A stretch of DNA of 64,000 nucleotides, taken from positions 64,075,261 to 64,139,260 of the forward strand of contig JAUZTB010000087.1 in assembly GCA_034780895.1 (NCBI GenBank), in the 5' to 3' direction. A model generated the notes under the pieces. The model was given only the letters and a program-made list of their open reading frames with translations. It did no database searches and had not been told where the DNA came from. This DNA comes from Rhynchobatus australiae. Taxonomy: Eukaryota. Within the stretch, counting starts at the first letter, position 1; each line of letters opens with the position of its first letter. Shown in pieces: positions 3,348 through 23,809 of the stretch. The position numbers and the translations under genes are program-made.

Positions 3348-4450
3348 TGACGTTCAACACAATCATCCCATCCAAACTCCTCATCAAGCTTCAAGACCTT
3401 GACCTCTGTATCTCCCTCTGCAACTGGATGCTTGACTTCCTCATTGGCAGACCTCAATCAGTGAGGATTAGTAATCATCAACATGTTGGCTGATCATCAA
3501 CGCAGGTGCACGTCAAGGCTGCGTGCTTAGTCCCCTGCTCTATTGTGTGGCTAAGCACAGCCCCAATGCCATCATCTTCAAATTCGCTGATGAAACTACT
3601 GTTGTTGGACGGATCACAGGTGCCGATGAGTCGGCTTCCCAGGGCAAGATTGGACACTTGGTTGAGTGATGCCACAACAACAACCTAAAGAGCTAATTGT
3701 TGACTTCAGGAAGGGGAAAACCACATGGGGGGATTGGCAGTGGAGAGAGTCAGCAGCTTTAAATTCCTGGGTATTAATATATCGGATGACCTGTCCTGGG
3801 CCCAGCACATAGGTGCAATCATAAGGAAAGCATGCCAGCATCTTTACTTTCATGGAGGTTGAGGAGTTTGGGCTTGTCACTGAACACTCTAATAAATTTT
3901 TATAGATGTACTGTTGAAAGTATCCTGACTGATTGCATCATGGTCTGGTACAGCAATTCGAATGTGCAGAAATGTAAGAAGCTGTGGAGAGTAGTTGACT
4001 CTGCCCAATACATCACGGGCACATCCCTCCCCACTACTGGTAATATCTACAGGAGGTGCTGCGTCAAGAAGGCAACATTCATCATGAAAGATACCCACCA
4101 ACCAGGCCATGCCATCTTTTCACAACTACCACCAGGTAGGAGGTACAGAAGCCTGAAGACCCACACCACCGGGTTCAAGAACGGCTACTTCCCTTCAACT
4201 ATTCAGTTTTGAACCAACTAGCAAAACCCTAATCACTACAGTTTAGCAACACTATGACCACTTTGCACTAAAATGGACTTCATATTTTGTTCTAATTGTG
4301 TTCTTTCTTGTAAACAAAAATGTGTATAATTTATGTTTTACTTGTGAATGCTGCTTATATGATGCTATGTGCCTGTGATGTTGCTGCAAGTAATTTTTTC
4401 ATTGTACCCATGCATACATGTAAATGCACATAGACAATAAACTCTACTTA
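3348..4450 (+). mobile_element. Rex1/Babar-type LINE 3' half
   Basis: '[13 protein letters not shown]', 'IFKFADETTVVG', 'NFYRCTVESILTDCIMVWY', 'LPPGRRYRSLKTHTT' motifs; ends at gacaataaa. Confidence 0.85.
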
Positions 4451-4598: not shown

Positions 4599-4653
4599 TG
4601 GCAGAAAAATCCAGCTAACAGTATTTTAGCATCAGGTGTCCAAGCTGTTCACA
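4599..4653 (+). CDS. Candidate internal exon of the + strand gene (WQKNPANSILASGVQAVH)
   Basis: Strong acceptor gtttttatcttttcccag and donor ACA|GTAAGT. 55 nt, ending in phase 1, which fits the downstream exons. Confidence 0.5.
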
Positions 4654-5309
4654 GTAAGTACCTATTCATTGATATGACTCAGCCTGTACACACTGGATAG
4701 AGTAGAATATTATGATTTATGGATCTTGCATAACTTAGCTGTTTGTTTTCAAAATAANNNNNNNNNNNNNNNNNNNNNNNNNNNNNNNNNNNNNNNNNNN
4801 NNNNNNNNGGAGAGTTGTGTTGAGCCAACTTCAATACACTATCTTCCCTGCCACAGAATACCTACCAAGTTTTTAAAAAATCTCTCTGGGCAAGAGTTTC
4901 AGATTTCCTGCCTATTCTTTAATTTATAAATATGGTCAGACCTGAGATGGAGAGAGAGAGCTAGCTGTTGGTCTGAGTTAGAAAACTACATGCATAGTTG
5001 AAGGTTGATTACACCTATTGAGATTCTGCAAAGGGTTCCTTTCTGAGGAGTGTATGTTGGCACATTAAGCCTACTTTTACTCAAAATGTGTAATGCATTT
5101 ACAAGTCCTGCAGAATTTTTAAAATATTGGTTGCCCCGTTTGTCCCATCTTGTTCTTGATTTTGTAATGGTTTTGTAAAGGGAATAGTTTGCTTTTAAAT
5201 AACCTAATGAACTTCTTTAACATAGAAAGCTGAGGTATAGTGTGTTTCATAAGCACACGGGAAATTGCTTTGCTAGTTATTATTAGTTACAAGTATCCCT
5301 TTTGAACAG

Positions 5310-5372
5310 GATGTGCTGCCTGTAGGAAGCTTCAGGCTCCAAGACAGATGCTTATCTGCCCCTGTACATGGG
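5310..5372 (+). CDS. Candidate internal exon of the same + strand gene (xCAACRKLQAPRQMLICPCTWG)
   Basis: Acceptor cccttttgaacag, donor TGG G|GTAATT. 63 nt, phase 1 to 1, open and in frame with both neighbouring exons. Confidence 0.5.
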
Positions 5373-5441
5373 GTAATTCTGCGGACCTATACCTGGTTGT
5401 TTCCATCATCCTGAGTGCATCTTCCTATGTTCTCTCAACAG

Positions 5442-6289
5442 GGAAACGAGGACCAGCAAAGCCATCCATTCTCGAGAGCAGCATTGCCCCAAGAATAGCA
5501 AACACATGCACAATGAGCTCTAGCTCTGAATCAGAGCTACATTGCGAGTCATCAGTACAGGGAAAATCCTATCCAAGTATAGAAGATCCCCAGTCTCCCT
5601 TGTCCAAAGGTGATTTGAAGAGGCCACTGGTAGCTCCTCGGCCAGAGCCCCAAATGGAAGAATTATTAAACCTGGAGCTTAGTGAGCCCGCTTTTAAACG
5701 GAGATTGGTGGAACATCAGTGTTACCTGCAGAGTCTCGTGACCTCATTGGCTACTGTAATGAATGATGTGGTATGTGGGATGGAGAAGATCATGTCAAGT
5801 CTGAATACCTCCATGTCTGATGTCCACAGTGTACTGGATCATCATTTGAGTGCATTGCAGTCCAGCAGAGAGTCCGTGTCATCTCAGACAGTTTTGGTGG
5901 AAAGCTCTTTTACACAGGGACTGAGCTGCATTGGAGCAGCACTTCAGACTGCCCTCAGTGCTGCTATATCTGACATGGGTTCTAAAGTGCAAGAAAGCTT
6001 GCAGATGGGATTTGAAAGCCTTGGAGAAAAAGTACAGTCAGCCATAAGGACGGGGTTTGCTGATCTGGTAAAAGAACATGCCTCTACTCACCAAAGCCTA
6101 TACAGCAGACAGGGTGGCGCAATCTCATCCACCAATAGCTCTTCACGTGAGGAGGCAATTCATAACAGTGGCCTGTCCCTTCCATCATCCCAACCCAGTC
6201 AGCTTTTGCCTGGTTCCTTGCTGGAAAGCAGAGGTCCCTCTGTGGTGATTCATGCACCTGGAAACATGAATCTAAGGAGCTTGCAGTAA
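5442..6289 (+). CDS. Terminal coding exon of an unidentified gene; Ser-rich linker plus long amphipathic/coiled-coil region
   Basis: Part of the 313-codon ORF 5348-6289, by far the longest gap-free ORF in the window. Good acceptor cttcctatgttctctcaacag at 5441 (phase 1), TAA at 6287-6289, AATAAA at 6356-6361. Confidence 0.75.
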
Positions 6290-6355
6290 GGAGGGAAATA
6301 AGGACTTCCTTGTAACTGAGGAATAACTAGGATAATTGAGAAAGCTATTGAATTA

Positions 6356-6361
6356 AATAAA
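6356..6361 (+). promoter_or_regulatory. Candidate polyadenylation signal AATAAA of the + strand gene
   Basis: Canonical hexamer about 66 nt after the stop codon. Confidence 0.4.
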
Positions 6362-6595
6362 ATGGACACAAGGCATCTGAAATGTAATTCTGCTGAAGAA
6401 AGTGATTGAAATGGTCCTCTCAACCATACTGTTGTGTGGCATGAATCACATACCAATTATGTAGGATGTGTACTATTTAAATCATTGACTAACCTAATAC
6501 AGCATTTATTAATGGTTCCTTTTATATTACAGTAGCTTTCACAGAAGATTCTAGAGTGACCTACTTGCTGCTTCATCTCCAACCCCTATCAAAAA

Positions 6596-6785
6596 ACAAA
6601 CTGCTGTTAGAGCTCGGATGGTCAGGCAGCATCTGTGGAGGTAGAAGGATGTTGATATTTTGGGTTGAGACTCCAGTTCTGATGCCTACGTCCTTTGGCT
6701 CCACAGATGCTGTCTGACCTGCTGAGTTCCTACAGCAGTTTTTTTTTGCTCTAGATTACAGCATCTGTAATCACTTGTGTCTACA
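6596..6785. repeat. Inverted pair of Penelope-type terminal repeats (hairpin)
   Basis: 'aaactgctg..ggtcaggcagcatctgtggag' is followed by its reverse complement 'ctccacagatgctgtctgacc..cagcagttt'. Confidence 0.75.
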
Positions 6786-7289
6786 ACCCTCATCAGTTCT
6801 CTTGTAGCTGCAGGACTCAGTATGTCCTTTCTCCACACACTTTCACAATTTGCCAGTCTACTTAGCACATTCAGACTTTGCATTTACTCTGTCCCTCAGT
6901 ACAATTCTTCACAATGATCATATCTAACCACAAGATACAGGTGCTTGCTCCAATGCTTTGGGGTTGGCTTTTTCACCTATACAGAACTTCCAAATGTCAA
7001 TGTATCCTGGTAAATCTATGTTGAGTTCAAGAAAAAAATTGCATTTCTATGTTTTTATTCAATTAAGGAACAGCAGCTGAATTGACACTTGTGGCTTTTC
7101 CTACTCTAACCAATTTTAATTATGGCTAAAAAAAACCTTCTTCTCTGGAGTCCCTACTATGTTGTCCCCATGCTTCCCATGGAATGCTATGGAACTAATG
7201 TGGGTAAATGGGTTTAGTGTAGATGAGTATGACAGTTGTTGCAGACAGATATATGCCCTTCAGTCCATCCTGCTTTATGACTCCATGAC

Positions 7290-8070
7290 TCTTAAACAAT
7301 TGAGTACACTTGTTGAACGGACTGGGCCTCTCTTGAGGAAAGAAGACTGAAAGGTGATCTAATAGGTTTTGACAGAATGCTTCTGTATGTGGGGAAGAAT
7401 GTAACAGAGGCCATAGTTATTAGATGGCCACCCAAAATTCCAGTGGGGAATTCAGAAGAAACTTCATTACCCAAATGCAGAGAATAGTTGAGGTGAATAG
7501 TATTGATGCATTTAAGAGGGGCCTGGACATGCACATGATGAGAAAGGAGAAGGCAGATGCACTAATAGGTATAGATGAGGAAAGCTGGGTAGAATTTCAA
7601 GTGGAGCATAAATGCCAGCATGTTCTGGTTGGATTGAATGGCCTGTTTCTGTTGCATACGTACTCTTATTTTTTTAAAAAATTCTTGCGATACTGCATTG
7701 TATCACTACTTTATGTTAGACTTATTTTTTTAGCAAGTGGTGATCCAATTAAATGGTACTTACATTTGTAAATGAGCTAGAAAATATCTCCTCCAGGCAT
7801 GGGAGTCTAGAATAACAAAAAAATTAAAGCTCTTCTTCACACATGTGAAATTGTGGAACTATGCTATGTTTTCAAAAGTTGCCTTGTTTCTCTCAAAAGC
7901 TGAGCTTATAAATTGAAAATTTATAAATTGAAATTGATTTTTATTATGCTAAAGGAATTGAAGAATATAGAACCAAGGATTTAGATGGAATTGAGGTACA
8001 GATTAGCCATGATCTAAATGCGTGGCTGAATGGGATTCAGAGCTGAATAGCTCATACTTGTTCTGTGACT
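7290..8070 (+). mobile_element. Two degenerate CR1-type LINE 3' ends
   Basis: 'RRNFITQ', 'NSIDAFKRGLD' and CR1 tail 'gaatggcctgtttctg'. Confidence 0.65.
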
Positions 8071-9539
8071 CTAAGGTTATTGGCAGTTTCACTGCATATT
8101 GATTCCTATCAAAACATGAAGCATTTCACAACAGACCTTTTCCATAATCAAAATCCAAAGTAGCTATATTGCTGGAAATCATCAAATTGGTGTTTTTTGT
8201 AGAACTGTGGTTTATCTTTGTTACAACTTCTGAATCTGTGCAATGTTTCTTAAAGAATGCTACTTTCACCATAAGAAAAATATAAATTGGGTTGTGTTTT
8301 CAAGATCTCTTTTAATTTCCTTGCTGTGCTCTGTAGCACAGTCTCCTTAAGCATGCTTTGTGCTTTACTAAAGTTTCTTTTGTGGGTTATGATAAAAGAC
8401 ATCAAAGTGTGCGCTTTCTATAATACTAATTAGTCTTGCATGATTTTGCACAATGGGGGAAGAGGAGTCAACACTTGAAGAGTTGTAAAAGTTCCAAAGA
8501 ATGTGATGATATATCTTAAAATAACAGATGCTATTATTAAAACTTTGAAAATAAAATAGAGTTTAAATTAAAACACCTTCACAGTGTTTGATTGTGCATG
8601 TTGGAATACTTGCACTCACACAAAATAACAAGACAAAGTAAATTCAGTGGTTCATTGATGACAAAGGACAAAGAACAGTTGCATAGCTAAATAGGCATTA
8701 CTAATTAATAGTTAAAATGCACAGGATATTCATTAAACATCAGTAGTGAAATCCATTGAATTGAAAGAGGAAGTCACAAGCAATGTAAGAGCTTAAGAGA
8801 TGGAACAACAAACTATTATCAGGAAATATTTCTGGTAAGTTTCTGATGAAGTTGGAATTAGAAGTAATATATTTAACCAAACTATTTGGATTTAACAGCA
8901 ATGGCCAATTCATCTACAGAAAATGCCTACCTAAAATTCACTGTCCAGCTTCATATATTGCATGTGAATTTGATCTGTTAATTCAGGTTAAAAATAACAG
9001 CCAATTTGTGAATAGACCTTTGTGTAGGGAAACCCTCCAGAAATCTGAGCCAACTATGTTTTACTCTTCAGCCCTGAGTGTAGAAAAAAAATGCACAGTT
9101 AAGACCAACAAGGCAGAATGTCCATTTGGGGACTGTAGGTAAAATGGCTAAAAATCTATGGAATGTCTTGAGAGACGAAATGCACAGTGTTAAAAAATAT
9201 TTTTCTTGTCAATTAAACATTGAATGCTGTATTATTTAAAAGACTAATGTCAAAATTTTCTAGTTCTCAGACAAGCCATTAGAGGGAGCTCTACAGCAGC
9301 AATGTTCCATTGCAAGTACAGAAAAGCATTGAATCTTGTGAACAGGAAATAGAACAACATGTGCAAATAAGGTATGCACACTTCATGTTTGAGGTGGTTA
9401 CCTTTTGTGATTGTTTAAGTATTTTGTTTATTCTTATTNNNNNNNNNNNNNNNNNNNNNNNNNNNNNNNNNNNNNNNNNNNNNNNNNNNNNNNNNNNNNN
9501 NNNNNNNNNNNNNNNNNNNNNNNNNNNNNNNNNNNNNNC

Positions 9540-12465: not shown

Positions 12466-12654
12466 TTAAGACTGTTGAGGCGCTGGTCTTTTCAAATCCC
12501 TGATCTGTTTAATCAAATAGGATTTCTCATCATTAAACTGGTCATCGTCTGTTCTGTCTGCTTGGAATTGACTGAGGAATTCTATCAGTTTGGTCTGGTT
12601 TTTCAACAGGATGTCCAGAATGGGTTGTGTTTTATTTGGATTTGCCACAAAAAC
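12466..12654 (-). CDS. cab39l1: CAB39/MO25-family last coding exon ([16 protein letters not shown]...[12 protein letters not shown])
   Basis: 189 nt including TAA. Acceptor ccttttag|GTT. The spliced CDS totals 339 aa with no frameshift. Confidence 0.96.
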
Positions 12655-15600
12655 CTAAAAGGGTAAAGAGAGATCAACATACAAAGCATTAAGAAATTAG
12701 GCAGATTTGATTTTTCAAATGATATCTAGATTTCACCTATATTATTTTAATCTTTCAATGTGGTTGCAAAACTATGTCCATCCAAAGCATTCATTTCTTC
12801 TCAAATTGTAATAAATTGACTTGCTTTTGCACCAGCTGGAAAGTTAAGCCTTTGATCAGTTTGCTAATATATGCAACTGCTCAAAGGCTCCCAATCTCAG
12901 ATTTTCTTGAGATAGAAAGTTAATGCTTTAGGGCAATGACCTTACAGATGACCCAATCAATTTATTACATTTTTCTTTTCACAGTTACTGCCTGACCGGC
13001 TGAGTATTTCTAGTGTTTTCTATTTCTAAATTTGTGTTCCCAGCATCTGTAATGTTTAGCTCCTAGTTTTCATCACATTCTCTTATTCTTTTGTGCTTTA
13101 CTTAAACTGCTCATATCCACTCAGATCATTTCCCTGTATTTTGAGCCTTTGGATAAGCAAAGGGATACATCAAAAGACAAGAGGTTTCATATCCTCTGAT
13201 GGCACACCAGGCAATGGGCACTTTAAAACAAACAGCAAACAACCATACACTATCTGTTTACTTGTGAATCAGCCTAGAAAGTCAAGGTTCACAACACACA
13301 AACAAAAAGAACTGCAGAATAATGCTTTAGTTAGAATGGAAATTACTTTCAGCTGGTTGGTCACTGTGTAAACTAACACTGAAATAAACATTAGAATTAA
13401 CATTTCAGTAAACAGCTGGAATGGGAAAAAATGAGATTCAGTCTAGCNNNNNNNNNNNNNNNNNNNNNNNNNNNNNNNNNNNNNNNNNNNNNNNNNNNNN
13501 NNNNNNNNNNNNNNNNNNNNNNNNNNNNNNNNNNNNNNNNNNNNNNNNNNNNNNNNNNNNNNNNNNNNNNNNNNNNNNNNNNNNNNNNNNNNNNNNNNNN
13601 NNNNNNNNNNNNNNNNNNNNNNNNNNNNNNNNNNNNNNNNNNNNNNNNNNNNNNNNNNNNNNNNNNNNNNNNNNNNNNNNNNNNNNNNNNNNNNNNNNNN
13701 NNNNNNNNNNNNNNNNNNNNNNNNNNNNNNNNNNNNNNNNNNNNNNNNNNNNNNNNNNNNNNNNNNNNNNNNNNNNNNNNNNNNNNNNNNNNNNNNNNNN
13801 NNNNNNNNNNNNNNNNNNNNNNNNNNNNNNNNNNNNNNNNNNNNNNNNNNNNNCTTCATCCACCACTCTATACATTCCTTCCACCACTTGCACACAGTAA
13901 CTGTGGCGAATACTATCCACAAAGTGTACCAACTACTTGAACAGAATTTCCAAAATGGATCTCCATCGCCTAGGAGGAGGGGAGTAGTTACTTGGTAACC
14001 CCTCCAAACCATACACCATCCTGACTTGGAACTATATCCCTGTTTTTTCATTGATGCTGATTTTAAATCCTGAAATTCCCAAACAACATTATGGGAGAAA
14101 CTTTACCGGCAGAGGTTCAAAAAGTTTGGATCACCACCACTTTCTCAAGGGCAATTAAAGCTGTCACCCACATCCTGGAAAATGAACAAATAAAACTCAA
14201 CTACTTCATGAATGCTGGCATGGACTGGGTGGGTCAAATGGCCTGTCTATCTCTGTCCCTTGTGTCTTGTATAATCCTATGTAAAGAGGGATCCTTGCTG
14301 TGGTTTGTAGCTGATTTGCAAAGTAAAACTGCTGACAATTCTACCGAAAGACAAATTCTCAGTTTTCCTACTATAATCCATTATAAAAATGACAAATAAT
14401 ATCCAAGCAAGACTTAAAAAAAACACATCTAGAGATTTACTGTCTATTCTCACTAAAGTACTGGCAGAGGGCAGGGTGCTGTCAGACTAAACACACACTC
14501 TTTTCACAACAAAGCTAGAATTTCAGTTAGTTATATCCCAAGCATAAAATACTCAATTGGTCCTAGACACCGTTTCTGCGGATTGGGCCATAACACCCGC
14601 AACACTCTCCCTGTCAGAGCGAAACAAAACCCACACCCCAAAGGAATACATCTTGCTTTGGTGGTTCAGAGGTCAGTGGGTGGATGACACAGCTGCACCT
14701 CTACATCTATTGCCAAATTATAAATGACAACAAAATAGGTGTGGAATGAGGTGGAGCTGCAGGGGCAGAGAATGGGGGAACCAAAGAAGGCACATCGAGG
14801 AACCAGTGGGATTGGCTCATTGACATGAAAGGACATTAGAAAAATACCTTTGAAATAATGCACAAAACTGAACAAAATAACAAAGGCAAAAAAACTTTCT
14901 AATCAAGAACATGGTTTCAAATAAAACACAATATGCCTTGAACCTTGGGTGACATGCAACTTAAACAGATAAACCAATTTTCTGCAAAGAATTATGAAGC
15001 AAATTGGGATTGTGTTTTTCTATTGCCAAAGAAAATACACATAAGCCCTACAGCACCATTTCACAATCTCTGCAGGTCCCAGTGCACAAATGAAGTAGAA
15101 ATCTAGAAACCTATTTCACAATAAATTCTACAAGTCAGTAACAGAAGACACATATCATACCACTTACAATATTAAGTGCCGTGAATAACTGGTAGCATGT
15201 TTTATTGGGACATATTTTGAAATGGGTCACACCTATATAAGGGGAATTATAAACATGATTGGAGTTAAAATTTTATGGTTAGTATAGAAGGTGAAGAGTT
15301 AGTTATGCACTGTTGCTAAATTGGTGTCCTTTAACTTCAAGTATTAATAGAGATGAGCACTCTTCTGAAGTGCAGATTAAAATTTGCTACAAAGTTCTGA
15401 ATGGCAATCTTTTTAATCTGAAAAATCTAAACCACACAATTATGAACGATTCTGTACCAAAATGTGTACTGAATTAGTGTAAATGAAGGAGATGTCCCAA
15501 GAAAAACAAGATCCAGCATCCTATTGGCCAACATTTTCCACACTGCTGGGACTAGATGCATCCATAAAAGGCACAGTAGTGGACTTGATAAGGTGCTCCT

Positions 15601-17230
15601 TTCAATTTGAGAGTGGTGTTCCAGCTGGAAGCTGCAGCAGGCCTATATCAATTATATAGACCTCTGTTTTTCCAATTAGAATACCACAGTGCTTGCCAAA
15701 TGAGGAGGAGGTGCAATATCTTCCTCTTTTATTCTGCCTTGAGATATGTGTCAGAGGTTCAGGCTCAATAGTCACTTCTCCTGATGAGAAATGTACATCA
15801 GAATGTCATGTGCCCAGACAGCCCTACTTAGGGATGATTTAATATTCTTCCTCAGTATAAAGTAATCCATTTTTGTGAAATAAACAGATGGTTTACTTCT
15901 GACAGAGAATGCAAATAAAGACACTAAGACACAGGCTCCACAGCCACAAAAAGACAAATAAAAAACAACTTTAATTCCATTATAACAAAAATAAAATCAC
16001 ACTGCAATTTGTGCCTATGGACAATACAATTCTTGCACCAGCCCACCAGCCATTTTTGTTGCATGCTGAATTCAATAATCTCCACCATGTTCTCTGTAAC
16101 TCACCCCCAAGCTCTAGTTGTAGCAGTGATGTGAAAAGCAATTTGCACTCAAAACTCGATAATAGCAAACAGCATCCACTCCATGCAGTTTTGTTCATAT
16201 AAAAAATGTGTGAAGTTATATTTACAAGTATTGGTCATGAAATCAGTGATACGCTTCTTGTAATGACTGTTCCTACATTGAGAACTTTTGATATTCCATT
16301 TAGAACAATTTGATTAAATTGACACAGCTGCAAGTACAGAATGATATGCAATCTTGTATTACACAAAAACTGAATGAAACAATGTGTTTAATGATTTTTC
16401 TCTCTTCTAAGAACCATAAAAGGTTTACATTGCATGTTTTAACTTTGCTTTGGTCATGATTGCACAACTCGTTTTCTCATACACCAGATACCCAAAACAC
16501 ACTATTCTGTCACATCAAGAGATTACCAGGTGGACAGAAGAAGATACAAAGATGTTCTCAAAGCCTCCAAAAAGCTGTAACATTCCCACCTATGCAAGGG
16601 ATTCCCTGCCCTATAACAGCTGTAAAAATTCCCTCCTACTCACAGGATTCCCTGGCCCACAACCACTTAGAATGCTGAAGGAGAATTCAGGACGGCAATG
16701 GGTATCTTGACTCCATTCACTGGGAGCACAGAGCAGCCCAGCATAACTGGTGGAATGAGGACACCACCTTCCAAACTAGACAGCCACCCACTCAAGCACT
16801 TATTGTTTCACTTGCGGTAGAGTTTACAGTTCCCACATTAGCTTCATCAGGAACCTCAGAGCCCACAGAAGTCACCCTCAAAACCAAGGAACTGCCTAAG
16901 AACAAGAGGAAAAAACAAATATGGGATGCATTACCTAGTCAGGAGCACAAGCAGCTCCAACAAACAACAGTGTCACCTCTCAACAGCACTAACACTGGAC
17001 CAACCCTACTGTATTTGTCATATAATCACCGTCTTGTTTGCTCAAACTCAGGGTAGATTTTGATAGAACAGATGAGAAATAGTTTCTACTGACAGGATGG
17101 TAATTAGCAAGAGGACAGAAATTATACACAATTTTAACTTGGAGTAAATTTGTCCAAACTGAGTCAGTTTTTGATGCAAGCAATTTTCAATTTAAACATC
17201 TATTAGTAGGTTAATATTGTTGTCTCTTAC

Positions 17231-17374
17231 CTTGAATACATGAAACGCCTCAAACTGGATATTTCTGCTTTGGTCCTTTAAGAGGTTCATCATGAGCTTG
17301 AGATTTTCAGGTTTACTGATATACCGAGTCATAACTGTAAAATTGTGCCTGTCCAACAGCAGCTCTCCTATAAG
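17231..17374 (-). CDS. cab39l1: CAB39/MO25-family coding exon 7 ([12 protein letters not shown]...[10 protein letters not shown])
   Basis: 144 nt. Acceptor gtgtcaag|CTT, donor AAG|GTAAGA. Confidence 0.95.
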
Positions 17375-18719
17375 CTTGACACAAAATGGATGATAACCAA
17401 ATGTCAACAGAATAACACACAACATAAACATGGATTTATTTGAAATCAATTACGAGTCTATAGTTTCTCACTTCCTCAATAAATTCCAGCAATAGCTTAG
17501 GACACATTGACCCGATAGCAAGATAAGAGTCTAAACAAATGATTATATGAGTGCTGTATACAGATAATGAGTCATAGTTGGGATACAAAGTGGGTACCCC
17601 TTGGCTTGCAAGGTTAACAAGAGGACACTAAAGGTTATTGCTTGGAGTGTATTCATTGGGCAAAACTAAGTCAATGACTTGCTATAGGAGCTAAATAAAA
17701 GACACTGGGGAAATATATGTGCTAATATTATTAAGATATTTATACTTCCAAAATGAAAAGAAAAGTGGATGCACAATATAAAAACTCCAGGCAAAAGAGA
17801 TTCANNNNNNNNNNNNNNNNNNNNNNNNNNNNNNNNNNNNNNNNNNNNNNNNNNNNNNNNNNNNNNNNNNNNNNNNNNNNNNNNNNNNNNNNNNNNNNNN
17901 NNNNATGTTAAGATAATAAAAAACAAATAGAAAGCAGAGATATAACTTCTTCGTAAGGAGTGGTGAATATGTGAAATAGCATTACCATGGAGTCACTGGG
18001 TGTGGAGGATTTTGAGTGAATGATGCAGAGATTTTTTGGCAGACAGGATTGTTGAAGAATGAAGTTGGCAAGGTCTGACACATGAAGCACATATGAATGG
18101 AAGAGATCACTTCCAGTACTGTCAGTTCTATGCTTGATGAGAAATTGTGACACAATGGATTGGTAATGAGGAAGAAGAGGTGATTACATGCATCTTAAGT
18201 AACCACCATTCCCTGTAGCTTGCTAACATCCCAGAGTTATTCCTGAAATTGATCAGCCTCTCTGCCTTCTCCAGCCAGGAGGAAGCAGTACATGATTCAT
18301 GGACAAGGAGAGCCCACTGGACCATTTCTTTGTTCGCACATGGACAGTATGCAAAAATGAATATGCACATTAATAAATGAATGGAAATAGAATCATCGAC
18401 ATTCTGCTCTAAAAGAAGGTTCTTCTCAATACAACAGAAGCTCTTCAAGTATAACCCCTATACTGGCAATTTAGCACTCACCTCTAATCAGTGCCCTCCA
18501 TTTACTACTCCAACCAAAAACACATTTCAAATCTGACAATGCCTGTATAGCTGTTTTATTTATCAGAACAGCATTCCCACTACTTCCCATTAAAAATGAA
18601 CAAAACATTTCCCGCACTGAGCCAGGTTCTTATTGCAACAAATGAAATTTATTCCAAAGCCACTTCACAGCAGAGCAGAAATGGTTAGGAGGGATGTTAT
18701 TGAAATGGCAGCTTCAGAT

Positions 18720-19450
18720 ACAAGGTACTGCAGCCGCTAGAAATCTGAAATAAAACAGAATATCGCTGGAAATACACAGGAGGTCAGGTAACATCTGTGG
18801 AGAGAGGAATAAGGTTAACATTACAAGGCCAGTGACCTTTCACCAGAATTGTGAAAAGTGAGGGGTGAAACATTTTTAACAGCTTCATTACAGCCTTTGG
18901 ACAATGAATTCATATAATCAGCAATTCCACCCTATGTACCTCATTATTTCCTGCACGTCTCGTTTGGGGGGGGNNNNNNNNNNNNNNNNNNNNNNNNNNN
19001 NNNNNNNNNNNNNNNNNNNNNNNNNNNNNNNNNNNNNNNNNNNNNNNNNNNNNNNNNNNNNNNNNNNNNNNNNGTACCTCATTATTTCCTGCACGTATAG
19101 TTTCCCTCCCCCCCCCCCCTATTTCTTTTATGCTGGTAATTTCATAATAATGATCCTCTCCTTTCTGTAGCTCTTCCAGACCACACATTCAATATTTAAA
19201 TTCCTTTACCACCCTCTTTCACTCAGCTCCATTAGCCTTTTTGTCTTTTAATCTCTCCTGTCCTCCATTTTATAATATTCTCATTTGTTCTCTCCTTCCC
19301 TACCCCATTCACTCCCCTCCAGCCATTTCTTTACTGCTTAAAATACCCCTTTTCTCTGTTCTGATGAAACTTTATTTAGCTGAAACATTAATTCTGTTTC
19401 TCTCTCCACAGGTGCCTGACCTATCTATTTCCACTATCTTGTTTTATTTC
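18720..19450. mobile_element. Penelope-derived element bounded by inverted terminal repeats
   Basis: Minus-oriented terminus at 18720-18850 and plus-oriented terminus at 19350-19450, each with a hammerhead-like CTG(A/G)TGA motif. Confidence 0.6.
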
Positions 19451-20639
19451 ACTTCCACGCTAGTGGACAGAAGCGCCTTTCATTGCCAGGGAGCTATAGT
19501 TGAGGTTCCTGACACAATGTGGTTGAGGAGGAGTGTGAAATATTGGATGAGAAAAAGAGGACTGTGAAATATTAATAGGAAATATTAACAGATTTAATGT
19601 CATTGAAAGTAGATAAATTACCAGTCTTGAATAAAAAGTACCACAAAGCATTAAAAACAAGGCCAGAAATAAGAGGTTCTACTATCATTTTCCAGTGCTC
19701 TCTTAAATTGAGGATGGTGCTGGATGAATGGACGTTGCTAACTTGGTACCATGGTACTAAAAAATTAAACCAAGCCACTAAAGATCAGTCATCCTAATAT
19801 AACTGGCAGGCTATTTACTGCACAAATAAATCTGAGGAACTGTACTGATCTCATTCAGAAAGGCAGAGAATAATCAAGGACAGTCAGCATGGATTTGTTA
19901 AGGGAACTAAGTTTAAATTTTAAACATTTGAGGACATCTACCTGGATTTTTCCCCCAAGGCTTTTGACTAAGTCACACATGGCAGCCTGATCACAAAACA
20001 AGCAATGATTCAGTGGAAAATGGCAACTAGGATCCAAAATTGACATAGTGACAGGAAGTGCAGGAATCAGTGTTGGGCATTTGGATTTTGTGGTACATGG
20101 CAAAGATATACAATGCACAGAGATCGCACAGAAGAACAGCTTCTCCATCAGATTTCTGAATGGTCCATGACCCATGAACACTACCTCATTATTCCCTTTT
20201 TTTTGGAATTGTATATTTATTTTTGTAATTTATAGCAATTTAATATCTCTGCACTGTACTACTGCTGCAAAACAAAGATTTTCACATCTGAAAATCAGTC
20301 TGTATGGGGATAAATTACTCCTTAACAAATTTCAGAATTCCAGTTTATGAATAAAAAGTCAGAAATTAATGTTTTAATAGATTCTCCAGTTATAACTGTC
20401 TCAACTATCTAAGTATTATGAGAGAATACATAGCTCTTTATATAGTTTTTGTATAAAGGCATCCATTCAAAAATCAAATGCTAAATATTTTGGATAGTAG
20501 GGTAATCAGACACCAAGACATCAAATCTCATTTGATGCATTCAATAAAATAATCAGAACCTCCTAAAAAGGTGGGGAGGAGGGCTTTGGCAACGAGTGAG
20601 TTGAGAGAGGATCATGTCAGACATTGTGTACTGAGATTG

Positions 20640-21305
20640 AAGCAAAATTTGTGTTACTGTGGTTATTTCATTAAGTTGAAAAGAAACCACAAGGCCATGG
20701 ACATTAGGCTGTATAACCCAATTTATCAAAAAGAAAAAGAATCAATGGATTTCACTTGCTTACAAAATGTACACCCCTTGGACTGCATGCAGTTTTAGTC
20801 TCATAACCCAAGAAAGGATATACCACCTTTGGAGACAGTTCAGGGAGAATTCACTAGGCTGATTTGTGGGACAAGTTGTTTTATTAGGCTAAAAAGATCT
20901 GTATTCTTTGGAGTTTAGAAGAATGAAAGTGAATCCTATTGATACAGATAAGATCCTAAGAGGCCATAACAGGGTAGATGTTGAGATATTTCTACTGCTG
21001 GAGGAGTTTCCAATGAGAGGACATTGCTACAAATAAGGGAATATTCATTTAAAACTGAAGCGAGTAGGAATTTTCTTGCAGTGTGAAGAATCTCTGGAAT
21101 TCTCTACCCCAGAGGGTTATGGAGGGGCTACGTTATTGGAGTATTTAAAGAGGAGGTAGTAACTTTTTGAAAGATCAGGGAATTGAGGGTTATGTGGAAC
21201 TGGCACAGAAGAGGAGATGTTGAGACTTGGGGCAGGTCAGCCATTATTGCATTAAACAGGAGGGAGGTTTGACGGGGCTAGGTGGCTTACTCCTGCCCCT
21301 ATTGT
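20640..21305 (+). mobile_element. CR1-type LINE 3' end
   Basis: Degenerate 'HPLDCMQF', 'YSLEFRRM' and tail 'ttactcctgcccctatt'. Confidence 0.8.
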
Positions 21306-21914
21306 TTGTTTAGAAATGAAAGATAGAAGAGACACTTTGCTACCTTGGTAAAATTAAAATGGGACCATTGTAACAAGATTCAACTTTTTAGCCATCACAG
21401 AGCTTCCAGTGGATTTTTAACTCCTACCTCTCAATGTTGCAAATAAATATAAAAACCTAATAAACATGTTGCACAGTTGAACACAGGCTATAAATTGAAA
21501 AAAATATTTTTGAAGCTCAACTAAATGCTAGTCAGTTCTGGAATTACAGTCAAACAGAACACATATTTAAATGCAATGATACTGATACATAAATATGCAA
21601 AGATTAGTTCTTTAATTACGCTTGCAAATCATTATTGCACTCTCTCCTCTGTTTCTATATACTTTTTATAAAATGGTGGTGAGGTCCAACTAATATTCTG
21701 ATTAGGTTTAACAAGTTCTGCTTTTGAAGTCTATTCCTAATATTCCATTTCAAGTATGATTTAAAATACTGTCCAAACACCCTGCTGCTAATTTGGGGCC
21801 AAAAGATTCTGATATCCTCACAAATGGGTAAAATGCCTAAACAAGTAATTTGGCTTGCTCTTCTATAAATAGTATATAATGGAGCATAAAGTAAATAGAC
21901 TCCTTTTTTATTAC

Positions 21915-21980
21915 CTTTAATGATTGCCTTTTTGTCACATAGTTCTCAGAGTGCAGCAACTTCTCATAGTCATTAAATAC
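21915..21980 (-). CDS. cab39l1: CAB39/MO25-family coding exon 6 (VFNDYEKLLHSENYVTKRQSLK)
   Basis: 66 nt. Acceptor tttccag|GTA, donor AAG|GTAATA. Contains the NYVTKRQSLK motif. Confidence 0.96.
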
Positions 21981-22087
21981 CTGGAAAGAAAAAAAATTCA
22001 TTTGAACAGAATCAAAAATTATGCCATTTAAAAAAAGTTCTTTAAACATGCAAAGGGACATTTAAGCCAAGAACCAAATTTATTTAC

Positions 22088-22147
22088 CAAATCATAATTC
22101 TGTTCTAAAAACTGTCCACACATGACTTTATGTCTGGTAAGCAAGTC
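22088..22147 (-). CDS. cab39l1: CAB39/MO25-family coding exon 5 (DLLTRHKVMCGQFLEQNYDL)
   Basis: 60 nt exon absent from the ORF track, found manually. Acceptor cttttatag|GAC, donor TTG|GTAAAT. Confidence 0.95.
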
Positions 22148-22880
22148 CTATAAAAGAAGATGGCAGAAGTTAAGACTATTCAAGAAATATAATCAGTATC
22201 TCAAAGCATTAAACTATATAATAGTTTAATTATCTTAAATCCAAATTCTTCCAAAACTAAAGCTTCCTGATTGGAGTGAAATTTCTGTGTTTAAAATACA
22301 CAAGAGATTAAGCACTCGCACAGAAAAGATATTTAATTGCTATGGCAGTGAAAGATAAATATGCAGGGAACTCTAGTTCAAATCTCACCAGCATGTGATT
22401 TTGAATTCTGTTTAGGTAACAGGAAAAAGTGACTTTGAAGTTGTTAGATTGCCATAAAAATGAAATGGATCCACAAGCTTCTCTGTGGCTCCAAATCACA
22501 ACAACTAATAAAACCAGCACTATGGGTATACTTCACTTTTCAGACTTCAGCCACTCACAAGAAAGGCTCTTAATAAAACACTTTAAAACGTTCCAAGACA
22601 GAAGATCAGATGTACTAATCTAAATGGATGCATTTTCTTAAAAAAATATAGACTATTATAACATTTCTTCACTGTTACATTACTGAAGCAATTAGATTAC
22701 TTTCAACAATACTACATGGCACAGGAGGAGTAACATGAATGGGGATCCCCTACAATTTGCCAATGATACAATAGTGTGGAAAGCATTAATGATACAATAG
22801 TTAACACGTCTGGATTATAAGAGCATACATTTAAACATGTCAAAGTTAATGAAGGTTTTTTTAAAAACAAGCTTATTTAC

Positions 22881-23049
22881 CTTAAACGTTGCAAAGGCAT
22901 CTGAAGCGATATCAAATGTTGACATTTCCACATATTTGAAGAAATCTCTAAAATGTTCTGAATAAAGGATTATTTTGGCAAGTGGTTCATGTCTGATGCA
23001 TTCTCTCAGCATGATGCCACAGTTCAAGGCAATCTCTGGTGTTTCATAC
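22881..23049 (-). CDS. cab39l1: CAB39/MO25-family coding exon 4 ([21 protein letters not shown]...[12 protein letters not shown])
   Basis: 169 nt, phase 2 to 0. Acceptor ttcattcag|G, donor AAG|GTAAAT. Confidence 0.96.
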
Positions 23050-23809
23050 CTGAATGAAAGAATATACATTGGAGAACAAAGTAGTGATATCAAGGTCTAG
23101 ATTCAGCATGGAGCTGAAACTTTAACAAAAAAAAGCATTAAAGTTTCATTTACAAACAATGCTCAGTTACTGTATTTCCATAGTTTGGTTTTGTTTGGGG
23201 ACTATTTCTAATAAATTAATTTCATCAATTAAGATGACAAATTATATTGTTGCCCTTTAAGATTTGATAGGAAAATGAGGAAAAAAGATACTTTGTTTTC
23301 TACTAAGTAAAGCTTATCCACAGGGCACGAGGTAAAATGCCCAGAACAATTATTCTTATTATGCATTTGAGGTTTCTTTAGTGTTCCCAATCAATGCACA
23401 AAAATAAATTTTCCTAGTAGCTTGTGCTTTACTCCACTATTAGCCAGGAAATTAACACAGTTTAAAGCGAGTTGTATGTTAAGTATTATGACTAAAGAAA
23501 TTAGTCCTCCTGGGGCTCTTGTACCAAAAAATCCATATTCCANNNNNNNNNNNGGAAAATTGACTGCTCTGCTTTTTTTTCAAAACACATAATCTATTAA
23601 TCTGGGGTTTCCCCTCAGATTCAATTAGATTTTCTCTATATTTCAATAACTTTGTTTTTATTTGGAGGAATATGCAATAGTGCAAGATTCCAAGTCAGTA
23701 TCTTGCTTTATACCATTCCTGTATCCAAAGCACAAGAGCTTTGAAACACGTACCGGTTCCAGATTAGGTCAGAAGATGAAACCAAAGAGATGAAATTCAG
23801 AAAATGCCT

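Follow-up and report, generated by a model that had tools for sequence, protein, structure and literature searches.

The exons between positions 4599 and 6361 of the window (the complete stretch of 64,000 nucleotides from Rhynchobatus australiae analysed here) are the 3′ end of a known gene, CDADC1, which encodes a dCTP deaminase, and do not represent a new gene. Probably, the short terminal exon of CDADC1 gave way, in an elasmobranch ancestor, to that of a Harbinger Myb/SANT gene, which provided the enzyme with a tail of 281 residues and a predicted coiled-coil binding function.

Identity and exon structure of the gene

A HMMER scan of 1.84 billion representative proteins with the tail as query yielded four matches. 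In the top match (P0001; 746 aa, 75%), the query corresponds to the last 279 residues, located behind two dCMP-deaminase domains, and the cluster of this protein is named CDADC1 and contains RefSeq CDADC1 from two skates. Two tandem stretches of the CMP/dCMP-type deaminase domain (PF00383) are present in P0001 and P0029, with matching exons upstream of the window, where tblastn located seven more coding exons 5.2 to 24.5 kb to its left (67 to 100% identity). In the upstream exons of the source genome, both catalytic motifs of the C-terminal domain, HAE and PCxxC, are preserved (VHAEQN, KCPCDEC), as in vertebrate CDADC1 (NYD-SP15) with its two deaminase domains (PDB 9HFQ-9HFT). A related Pristis protein shows 95% identity over the tail and an E-value of 1e-186 against the human CDADC1 structure, and the long fusion protein is already contained in RefSeq as CDADC1. 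The original prediction had described an unrecognised gene with 5′ exons to the left of the window. The seven coding exons are indeed located there and, together with the homology to P0001, identify the gene as CDADC1, which makes the terminal exon a clear match to the last exon of a known gene, an outcome that the original prediction had named as a refutation.

The convergent neighbour proposed earlier was found as well: 3′ exons of a Mo25/CAB39-family gene extend from 12469 to 23096 on the minus strand (Pfam PF08569, E 5e-25 to 1e-22 in the three pieces scanned). In human, too, CDADC1 is a neighbour of CAB39L. A PF00383 scan of the source genome overlooked CDADC1 because the domain is split across exons. 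Searches with the tail alone gave no useful match in Pfam and the ESM Atlas and 0 matches among 1472 candidates in a word-indexed homologue search; the homologues were recovered later by the HMMER scan.

The penultimate coding exon (WQKNPANSILASGVQAVH) comprises 55 nt at positions 4599 to 4653 of the plus strand, leads from phase 0 to phase 1, is bounded by cag/TGG and ACA/gtaagt and corresponds to residues 449-468 of P0001. Its WQ start is common to the CDADC1 proteins of chimaera and bony vertebrates. It is followed by the last intron (4654 to 5441, plus strand; 788 nt, GT..AG, phase 1) and by the captured terminal coding exon (5442 to 6289, plus strand), which has a length of 848 nt, encodes 281 aa, begins at the acceptor acag/GG and ends with the stop codon TAA. 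The frame from 5306 to 6286 is free of stops for 327 codons and is thus the longest of the window, the runner-up having 191. Both exons, their splice signals and the open frame were thereby confirmed in the sequence, and the gene is single-copy in that the DNA from 5300 to 6370 has one match within the 2.2-Gb genome.

A third exon of 63 nt had been predicted between these two, with junctions 4653/5310 and 5372/5442. Contigs from all four RNA-like runs (X1-X4; one related organism, one study, the RNA nature being guessed by the tool) pass directly from 4653 to 5442 and include as many as 1506 letters ahead of 5442; the segment from 5310 to 5372 is therefore skipped. A comparison with 156 proteins did not recover its peptide (best E 0.78), and since 63 is a multiple of three, the frame holds with or without it. 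Two further interpretations of this segment were discarded. As a decayed ancestral last exon it scored 13.9, a value reached by 467 of 1200 control windows, and as a remnant of an upstream exon of the donor it lacked similarity at both the DNA and the protein level.

At the 3′ end, the predicted poly(A) signal ATTAAA is present at 6352, while its role as transcript end was not confirmed: overlapping contigs cover 5442 to 8561, and an AATAAA at 8550 lies beside the contig end at 8561. The 3′ UTR therefore probably occupies 6290 to 8561 on the plus strand, and most transcripts may continue past the ATTAAA at 6352; this is a weak hint, as contigs do not show transcript ends. Decayed repeats of LINE-like and SINE-like type at 783-1079, 3358-4212 and 6590-6790 of the window attract high-copy contigs.

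It is extremely improbable that the terminal exon is part of an independent, domesticated Myb/SANT gene whose 5′ exons lie concealed in gaps and which annotation wrongly merged with CDADC1. The assembly does contain N gaps, and there are Logan proteins made up solely of the tail (P0012, P0014), but the whole fusion of 732 to 746 aa is encoded on single Logan contigs (P0001, P0013, P0015, P0017); that of P0001 measures 4,963 nt, compared with a gene span of about 30 kb here. Moreover, the tail is spliced to the WQ exon common to all CDADC1. The Myb/SANT exon suspected upstream did not emerge either: the window and the 200 kb upstream of it gave no Myb match below E 1.7 (assembly gaps being unreadable), and the fused proteins have no Myb domain. 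The stand-alone NAIF1/MSANTD-like gene of the original prediction was abandoned accordingly, the upstream exons being those of CDADC1.

Distribution of the tail and selection on it

A survey of CDADC1 proteins, comprising the best 120 of 510 matches, included 21 elasmobranch entries and 99 others, namely Callorhinchus as the sole holocephalan, bony vertebrates and eight unnamed Logan proteins. The tail is present in 18 of the 21 elasmobranch entries and, among these best 120 of 510 matches, in 0 of the 99 entries from chimaera, bony vertebrates and the unnamed proteins. Of the three remaining elasmobranch entries, two are short isoforms of skates, and the third is a catshark model of older date which ends soon after the tail begins. 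Skate CDADC1 isoforms P0008 and P0038 end five residues past the WQ exon. Tailed CDADC1 was found in 16 named sharks and rays, including the species of the P0001 cluster, and ranges over skates, sawfish, manta and electric ray as well as cow, saw, bullhead, carpet, mackerel and ground sharks.

CDADC1 of Callorhinchus and of most bony vertebrates has a short, basic final exon, roughly of the form NG...KK/R-L-C (56 ends among those listed). According to the available text of PMC12088426, this basic end is part of a putative bipartite NLS in human CDADC1, situated in a short disordered tail (residues 477-514). The elasmobranch proteins differ from the human one in that the second part of this tail is swapped for 281 aa in which two long helices are predicted. 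No remnant of the short basic exon, i.e. of the putative NLS half, exceeded control scores between 4654 and 5700. Its replacement is a lineage variant and does not exclude the gene from CDADC1. In a phylogenetic tree, 11 CDADC1 tails form one group (support 97/98), within which the rays cluster together (99/100), and the simplest reading of these sequences would be one gain on the elasmobranch stem. Such a gain would date back about 300 to 400 million years.

The tail is under purifying selection, as its intactness had suggested from the beginning. Two DNA runs from two other organisms were aligned to the terminal exon, one completely and the other with a hole, and neither contains indels. Among the 37 distinct differences listed in incomplete tables (34 from the DNA runs and three from RNA-like contigs), 21 are synonymous and 16 non-synonymous, corresponding to a dN/dS of about 0.27-0.36 (p 0.0001-0.0015), i.e. 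about 0.3 overall. The value is lower in the helical core (about 0.14, range 0.11-0.15), with nine synonymous versus three non-synonymous differences; linker and distal end show ratios of 6:6 and 6:7, which are not significant (p > 0.06). Ray-shark identity amounts to 54-66% in the tail versus 81-88% in the enzyme part, so the tail evolves faster. Within the tail, identity of the ray to sharks is 50-82% in the helical core and 32-63% in the flanks, with 33-63% for residues 1-50.

On these grounds we regard it as improbable that the tail is a tolerated appendage, its frame remaining open merely because the exon provides a stop codon and a poly(A) site. The low dN/dS and the higher identity of the core relative to the flanks argue against this explanation, as does the open frame at full length in 16 species, even though constraint in linker and distal end is weak, skates possess short isoforms and mice tolerate the loss of CDADC1 well (PMC12088426 and PMC12184417, available text).

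Relationship to Harbinger-type Myb/SANT proteins

Second in the HMMER scan was P0002 (E 8e-17), an elasmobranch protein with a Myb/SANT domain (PF13873) and a C-terminal half which aligns with the tail. A hidden Markov model built from CDADC1 tails alone recovered all 11 members of the P0002 cluster with E-values of 1e-32 to 7e-35, and the orthologue of P0002 in the source genome (C17 gene) shows 61% DNA identity to the tail exon over 258 nt. Further tail-bearing Myb genes of this genome are located on C62, C68 and C75 (two). The donor family shares a layout of PF13873 Myb/SANT domain, acidic linker and helical tail, and phase 1, in which the last intron of CDADC1 lies, recurs at the final intron of the C17, C68 and C107 relatives. 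Among named matches, the tail family is confined to elasmobranchs in a word-limited search. Sequence comparison shows homology between the tail and the C-terminal half of Harbinger-type Myb/SANT proteins of elasmobranchs. The likeness to the C-terminal half of a Harbinger Myb/SANT partner, which the original prediction had proposed, is thus supported by P0002 and by the ties of the family to transposase remnants. Two other tails (L086, L087) without significant similarity to the window tail were left out, as was P0004 with its compositional match.

Tail-sharing Myb/SANT genes with open frames are found at C17:1.61M (L003), C68:32.76M (L005), C75:6.70M (L140) and 8.67M (L090), and C127:88.41M (L089). 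Orthologues of the C17 and C68 genes are conserved in sharks and rays and are mostly named 'uncharacterized'; the gene set looks like a group of undescribed Harbinger domestications. The tail of a further gene (L004, C62:18.455M) is split over two frames and its Pristis counterpart P0003 is continuous, indicating a broken copy or an assembly error. A gene matching P0148 has its Myb exon on L042 (C42:33.06M) and its later exons on L005 (C68:32.76M) after an N gap, a separation which is probably an assembly misplacement.

The connection to transposons is provided by the gene at C127:88.41M (L089), which combines a Myb exon (PF13873, E 9e-13) and a tail with a convergent broken HARBI-like transposase (pieces of 30-35 bits). 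It joins the tail family with E 7e-9 (HMM) via a C75 gene; compared directly, it resembles the window tail weakly (z 3.6; 1 of 300 shuffles). For the L089 tail, scoring 150 of 1714 candidates gave at least 151 matches in the genome, most of which contain stops. Of 18 decayed copies of this type, three are accompanied by a convergent transposase remnant of at least 12 bits (52, 22 and 12.5) and 0 by one on the same strand, and 2 of 80 control strands reach 14 bits. These remnants were called with a purpose-built HMM from four intact PF13359 frames; Pfam recognised none of the three transposase fragments scanned. A second case is an open tail-family exon of 328 codons in phase 1 at L175:7471-8454 (C107:12.89M) with a convergent transposase remnant of 41 bits and no Myb exon in about 37 kb upstream. 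The tree places it next to the CDADC1 tails, weakly (90/83, long branch), and it could represent a second capture by another host gene.

Harbinger elements have a two-ORF layout (PMC9179366, available text), and the Myb ORF, transposase and decayed copies of the tail family fit this layout at the level of sequence. The same text reports Harbingers as undetected in elephant shark, and the CDADC1 of this species is without the tail. The source genome contains four long open HARBI1-like transposase frames (L047, L049, L054 and L057; 387-447 codons, L057 across an N gap), and no Myb partner was present within 10 kb of L047 or L057, the two flanks inspected. Mammals possess only one HARBI1. Upstream of CDADC1, about 29 and 55 kb to the left of the window, weak HARBI-like fragments of 12-14 bits occur (L009:520-801, L012:5256-5387).

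How the exon reached CDADC1 can be outlined in a conditional manner. An element, or a domesticated copy of it, would have arrived at the gene's 3′ end in the same orientation as CDADC1, whose splicing would have taken the donor's last-exon acceptor in frame; as the last exon of the donor and the last intron of CDADC1 are both in phase 1, in-frame capture is straightforward. The Myb exons and the transposase of the donor would then have been lost, or were never brought along. No transposase was detectable at the locus, with negative HMM scores in the 4 kb downstream and no tblastn match in the window, and this absence of transposase and Myb remnants means that the immediate donor could have been an already domesticated gene. 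Terminal inverted repeats and 3-bp target duplications of an insertion this old would hardly survive. A segmental duplication of such a host Myb/SANT gene of the C17/C62 type, ultimately still of Harbinger origin, is a less probable yet serious alternative to capture from an element. The nearest sequences, those of the C17 gene, which is intact and under strong conservation, and of its paralogue on C62, speak for it, together with the lack of a transposase trace downstream of the tail in the window, but the flanking intron is dissimilar to the C17 and C62 loci and the orphan C107 exon with its transposase remnant lies next to the CDADC1 tails in the tree, weakly supported as it is.

Predicted function and significance

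An AlphaFold prediction from 15 sequences divides the tail into a Ser/Pro/acidic linker (residues 1-82; 5444 to 5689, plus strand), predicted to be disordered with pLDDT < 50 for residues 1-73, two amphipathic helices and a disordered distal end. Predicted helix 1 (residues 83-142; 5690 to 5869, plus strand) begins at the family motif PAFKRR and has a heptad-like hydrophobic period of 3.54. Predicted helix 2 (residues 148-223; 5885 to 6112, plus strand) has a period of 3.80 and a threefold 15-residue repeat, which is common to the Myb relatives and whose lag-15 score was reached by 0 of 5000 shuffles. Repeats of 15 residues are typical of right-handed parallel coiled coils. The pLDDT of both helices is mostly 80-90; given a pTM of 0.29, the prediction does not define their packing. 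A Foldseek search with the tail model gave no match, and VIA-align gave generic long helices only, the best of which (Z 9.6, rmsd 2.4, 151 aligned, 8% identity) falls short of the score that is trusted for helices.

The human enzyme assembles into trimers, and its active form is a hexamer (PMC12088426, available text). From this oligomeric state and the coiled-coil-like helices of the model we infer self-association: the flexible linker would lead to two long amphipathic helices, which would pair with the tails of other subunits of the trimer or hexamer. That the tails pair among subunits and stabilise the oligomer has, in our estimation, almost an even chance. Binding to related Myb/SANT or HARBI1-like proteins is less likely than such self-pairing, and we consider it doubtful that the tail docks the deaminase on these partners and takes the conversion of dCTP to dUTP to chromatin or transposon complexes. 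In favour of such docking, several intact Myb genes bear the same tail and the source genome has four long open frames for HARBI-like transposases; furthermore, NAIF1 binds HARBI1 (cited in the available text of PMC9392472) and the C-terminal region of plant HDP2 is required for HDP1 binding (PMC5339849, likewise). On the other hand, the segment right after the Myb domain, maybe the transposase-binding part, is absent from the captured piece. Somewhat less likely still, the tail may mainly alter localisation, the old basic terminal motif having been lost.

Host-transposase fusions such as SETMAR, in which a host gene is spliced into a coding exon of a DNA transposon and the product is maintained by selection, are established. 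The elasmobranch CDADC1 differs from this type in two respects: the captured piece stems from the accessory Myb ORF and not from the transposase, and the host is an enzyme of nucleotide metabolism and not a chromatin or transcription factor. Like NAIF1 and MSANTD1-4, which are domesticated derivatives of Harbinger Myb-like proteins (PMC9392472, accessible text), the donor family has a Myb/SANT domain, and its members adjoin convergent transposase remnants. The CDADC1 tail itself displays traits of this type, i.e. single copy, orthology across species and purifying selection. In contrast to those genes, the CDADC1 locus harbors the C-terminal half alone, without a Myb domain and fused to an enzyme. 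The nearest precedent, as far as the available part of the preprint goes, is tSNARE1 (bioRxiv 10.1101/2021.02.09.430442), which likewise joins a host gene with part of the second Harbinger ORF in a vertebrate lineage. It acquired the DNA-binding Myb half, which is fused there to a SNARE domain; CDADC1 acquired the C-terminal half, which does not bind DNA and took the place of its last exon.

The tail is known as a RefSeq sequence; its transposon origin has apparently not been described before in the literature searched. Titles and abstract openings of work on CDADC1/NYD-SP15 and Harbinger domestication, outside subscription papers, gave no account of the tail or its origin. The word 'shark' occurs once in the main texts of two CDADC1 papers (PMC12088426, PMC12184417), concerning conserved lysines; in PMC12088426, an alignment in Fig. 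S18 includes shark sequences, where the extension may be visible.

According to the available texts of these two papers, the biological role of CDADC1 is openly unexplained, and (d)CTP deaminase activity is established for the human enzyme alone (PMC12088426). The add-on of 281 aa, selected since before the shark-ray split, offers a natural handle on the regulation and the partners of CDADC1. It is also a clean example of a metabolic enzyme gaining the non-DNA-binding half of a transposon accessory protein. Beyond CDADC1, Harbinger-derived Myb genes and a decayed family are revealed in elasmobranchs, the published survey having covered, in its available text, just the Harbinger-free elephant shark (PMC9179366). 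As a distinctly speculative extension, an early elasmobranch Harbinger burst might have left a private Myb/SANT family with a common coiled coil of 15-residue repeats, into whose network the captured coil of CDADC1 plugs as an address tag. If true, the tail would bring the dUTP-making CDADC1 to chromatin or transposase complexes, possibly against transposition.
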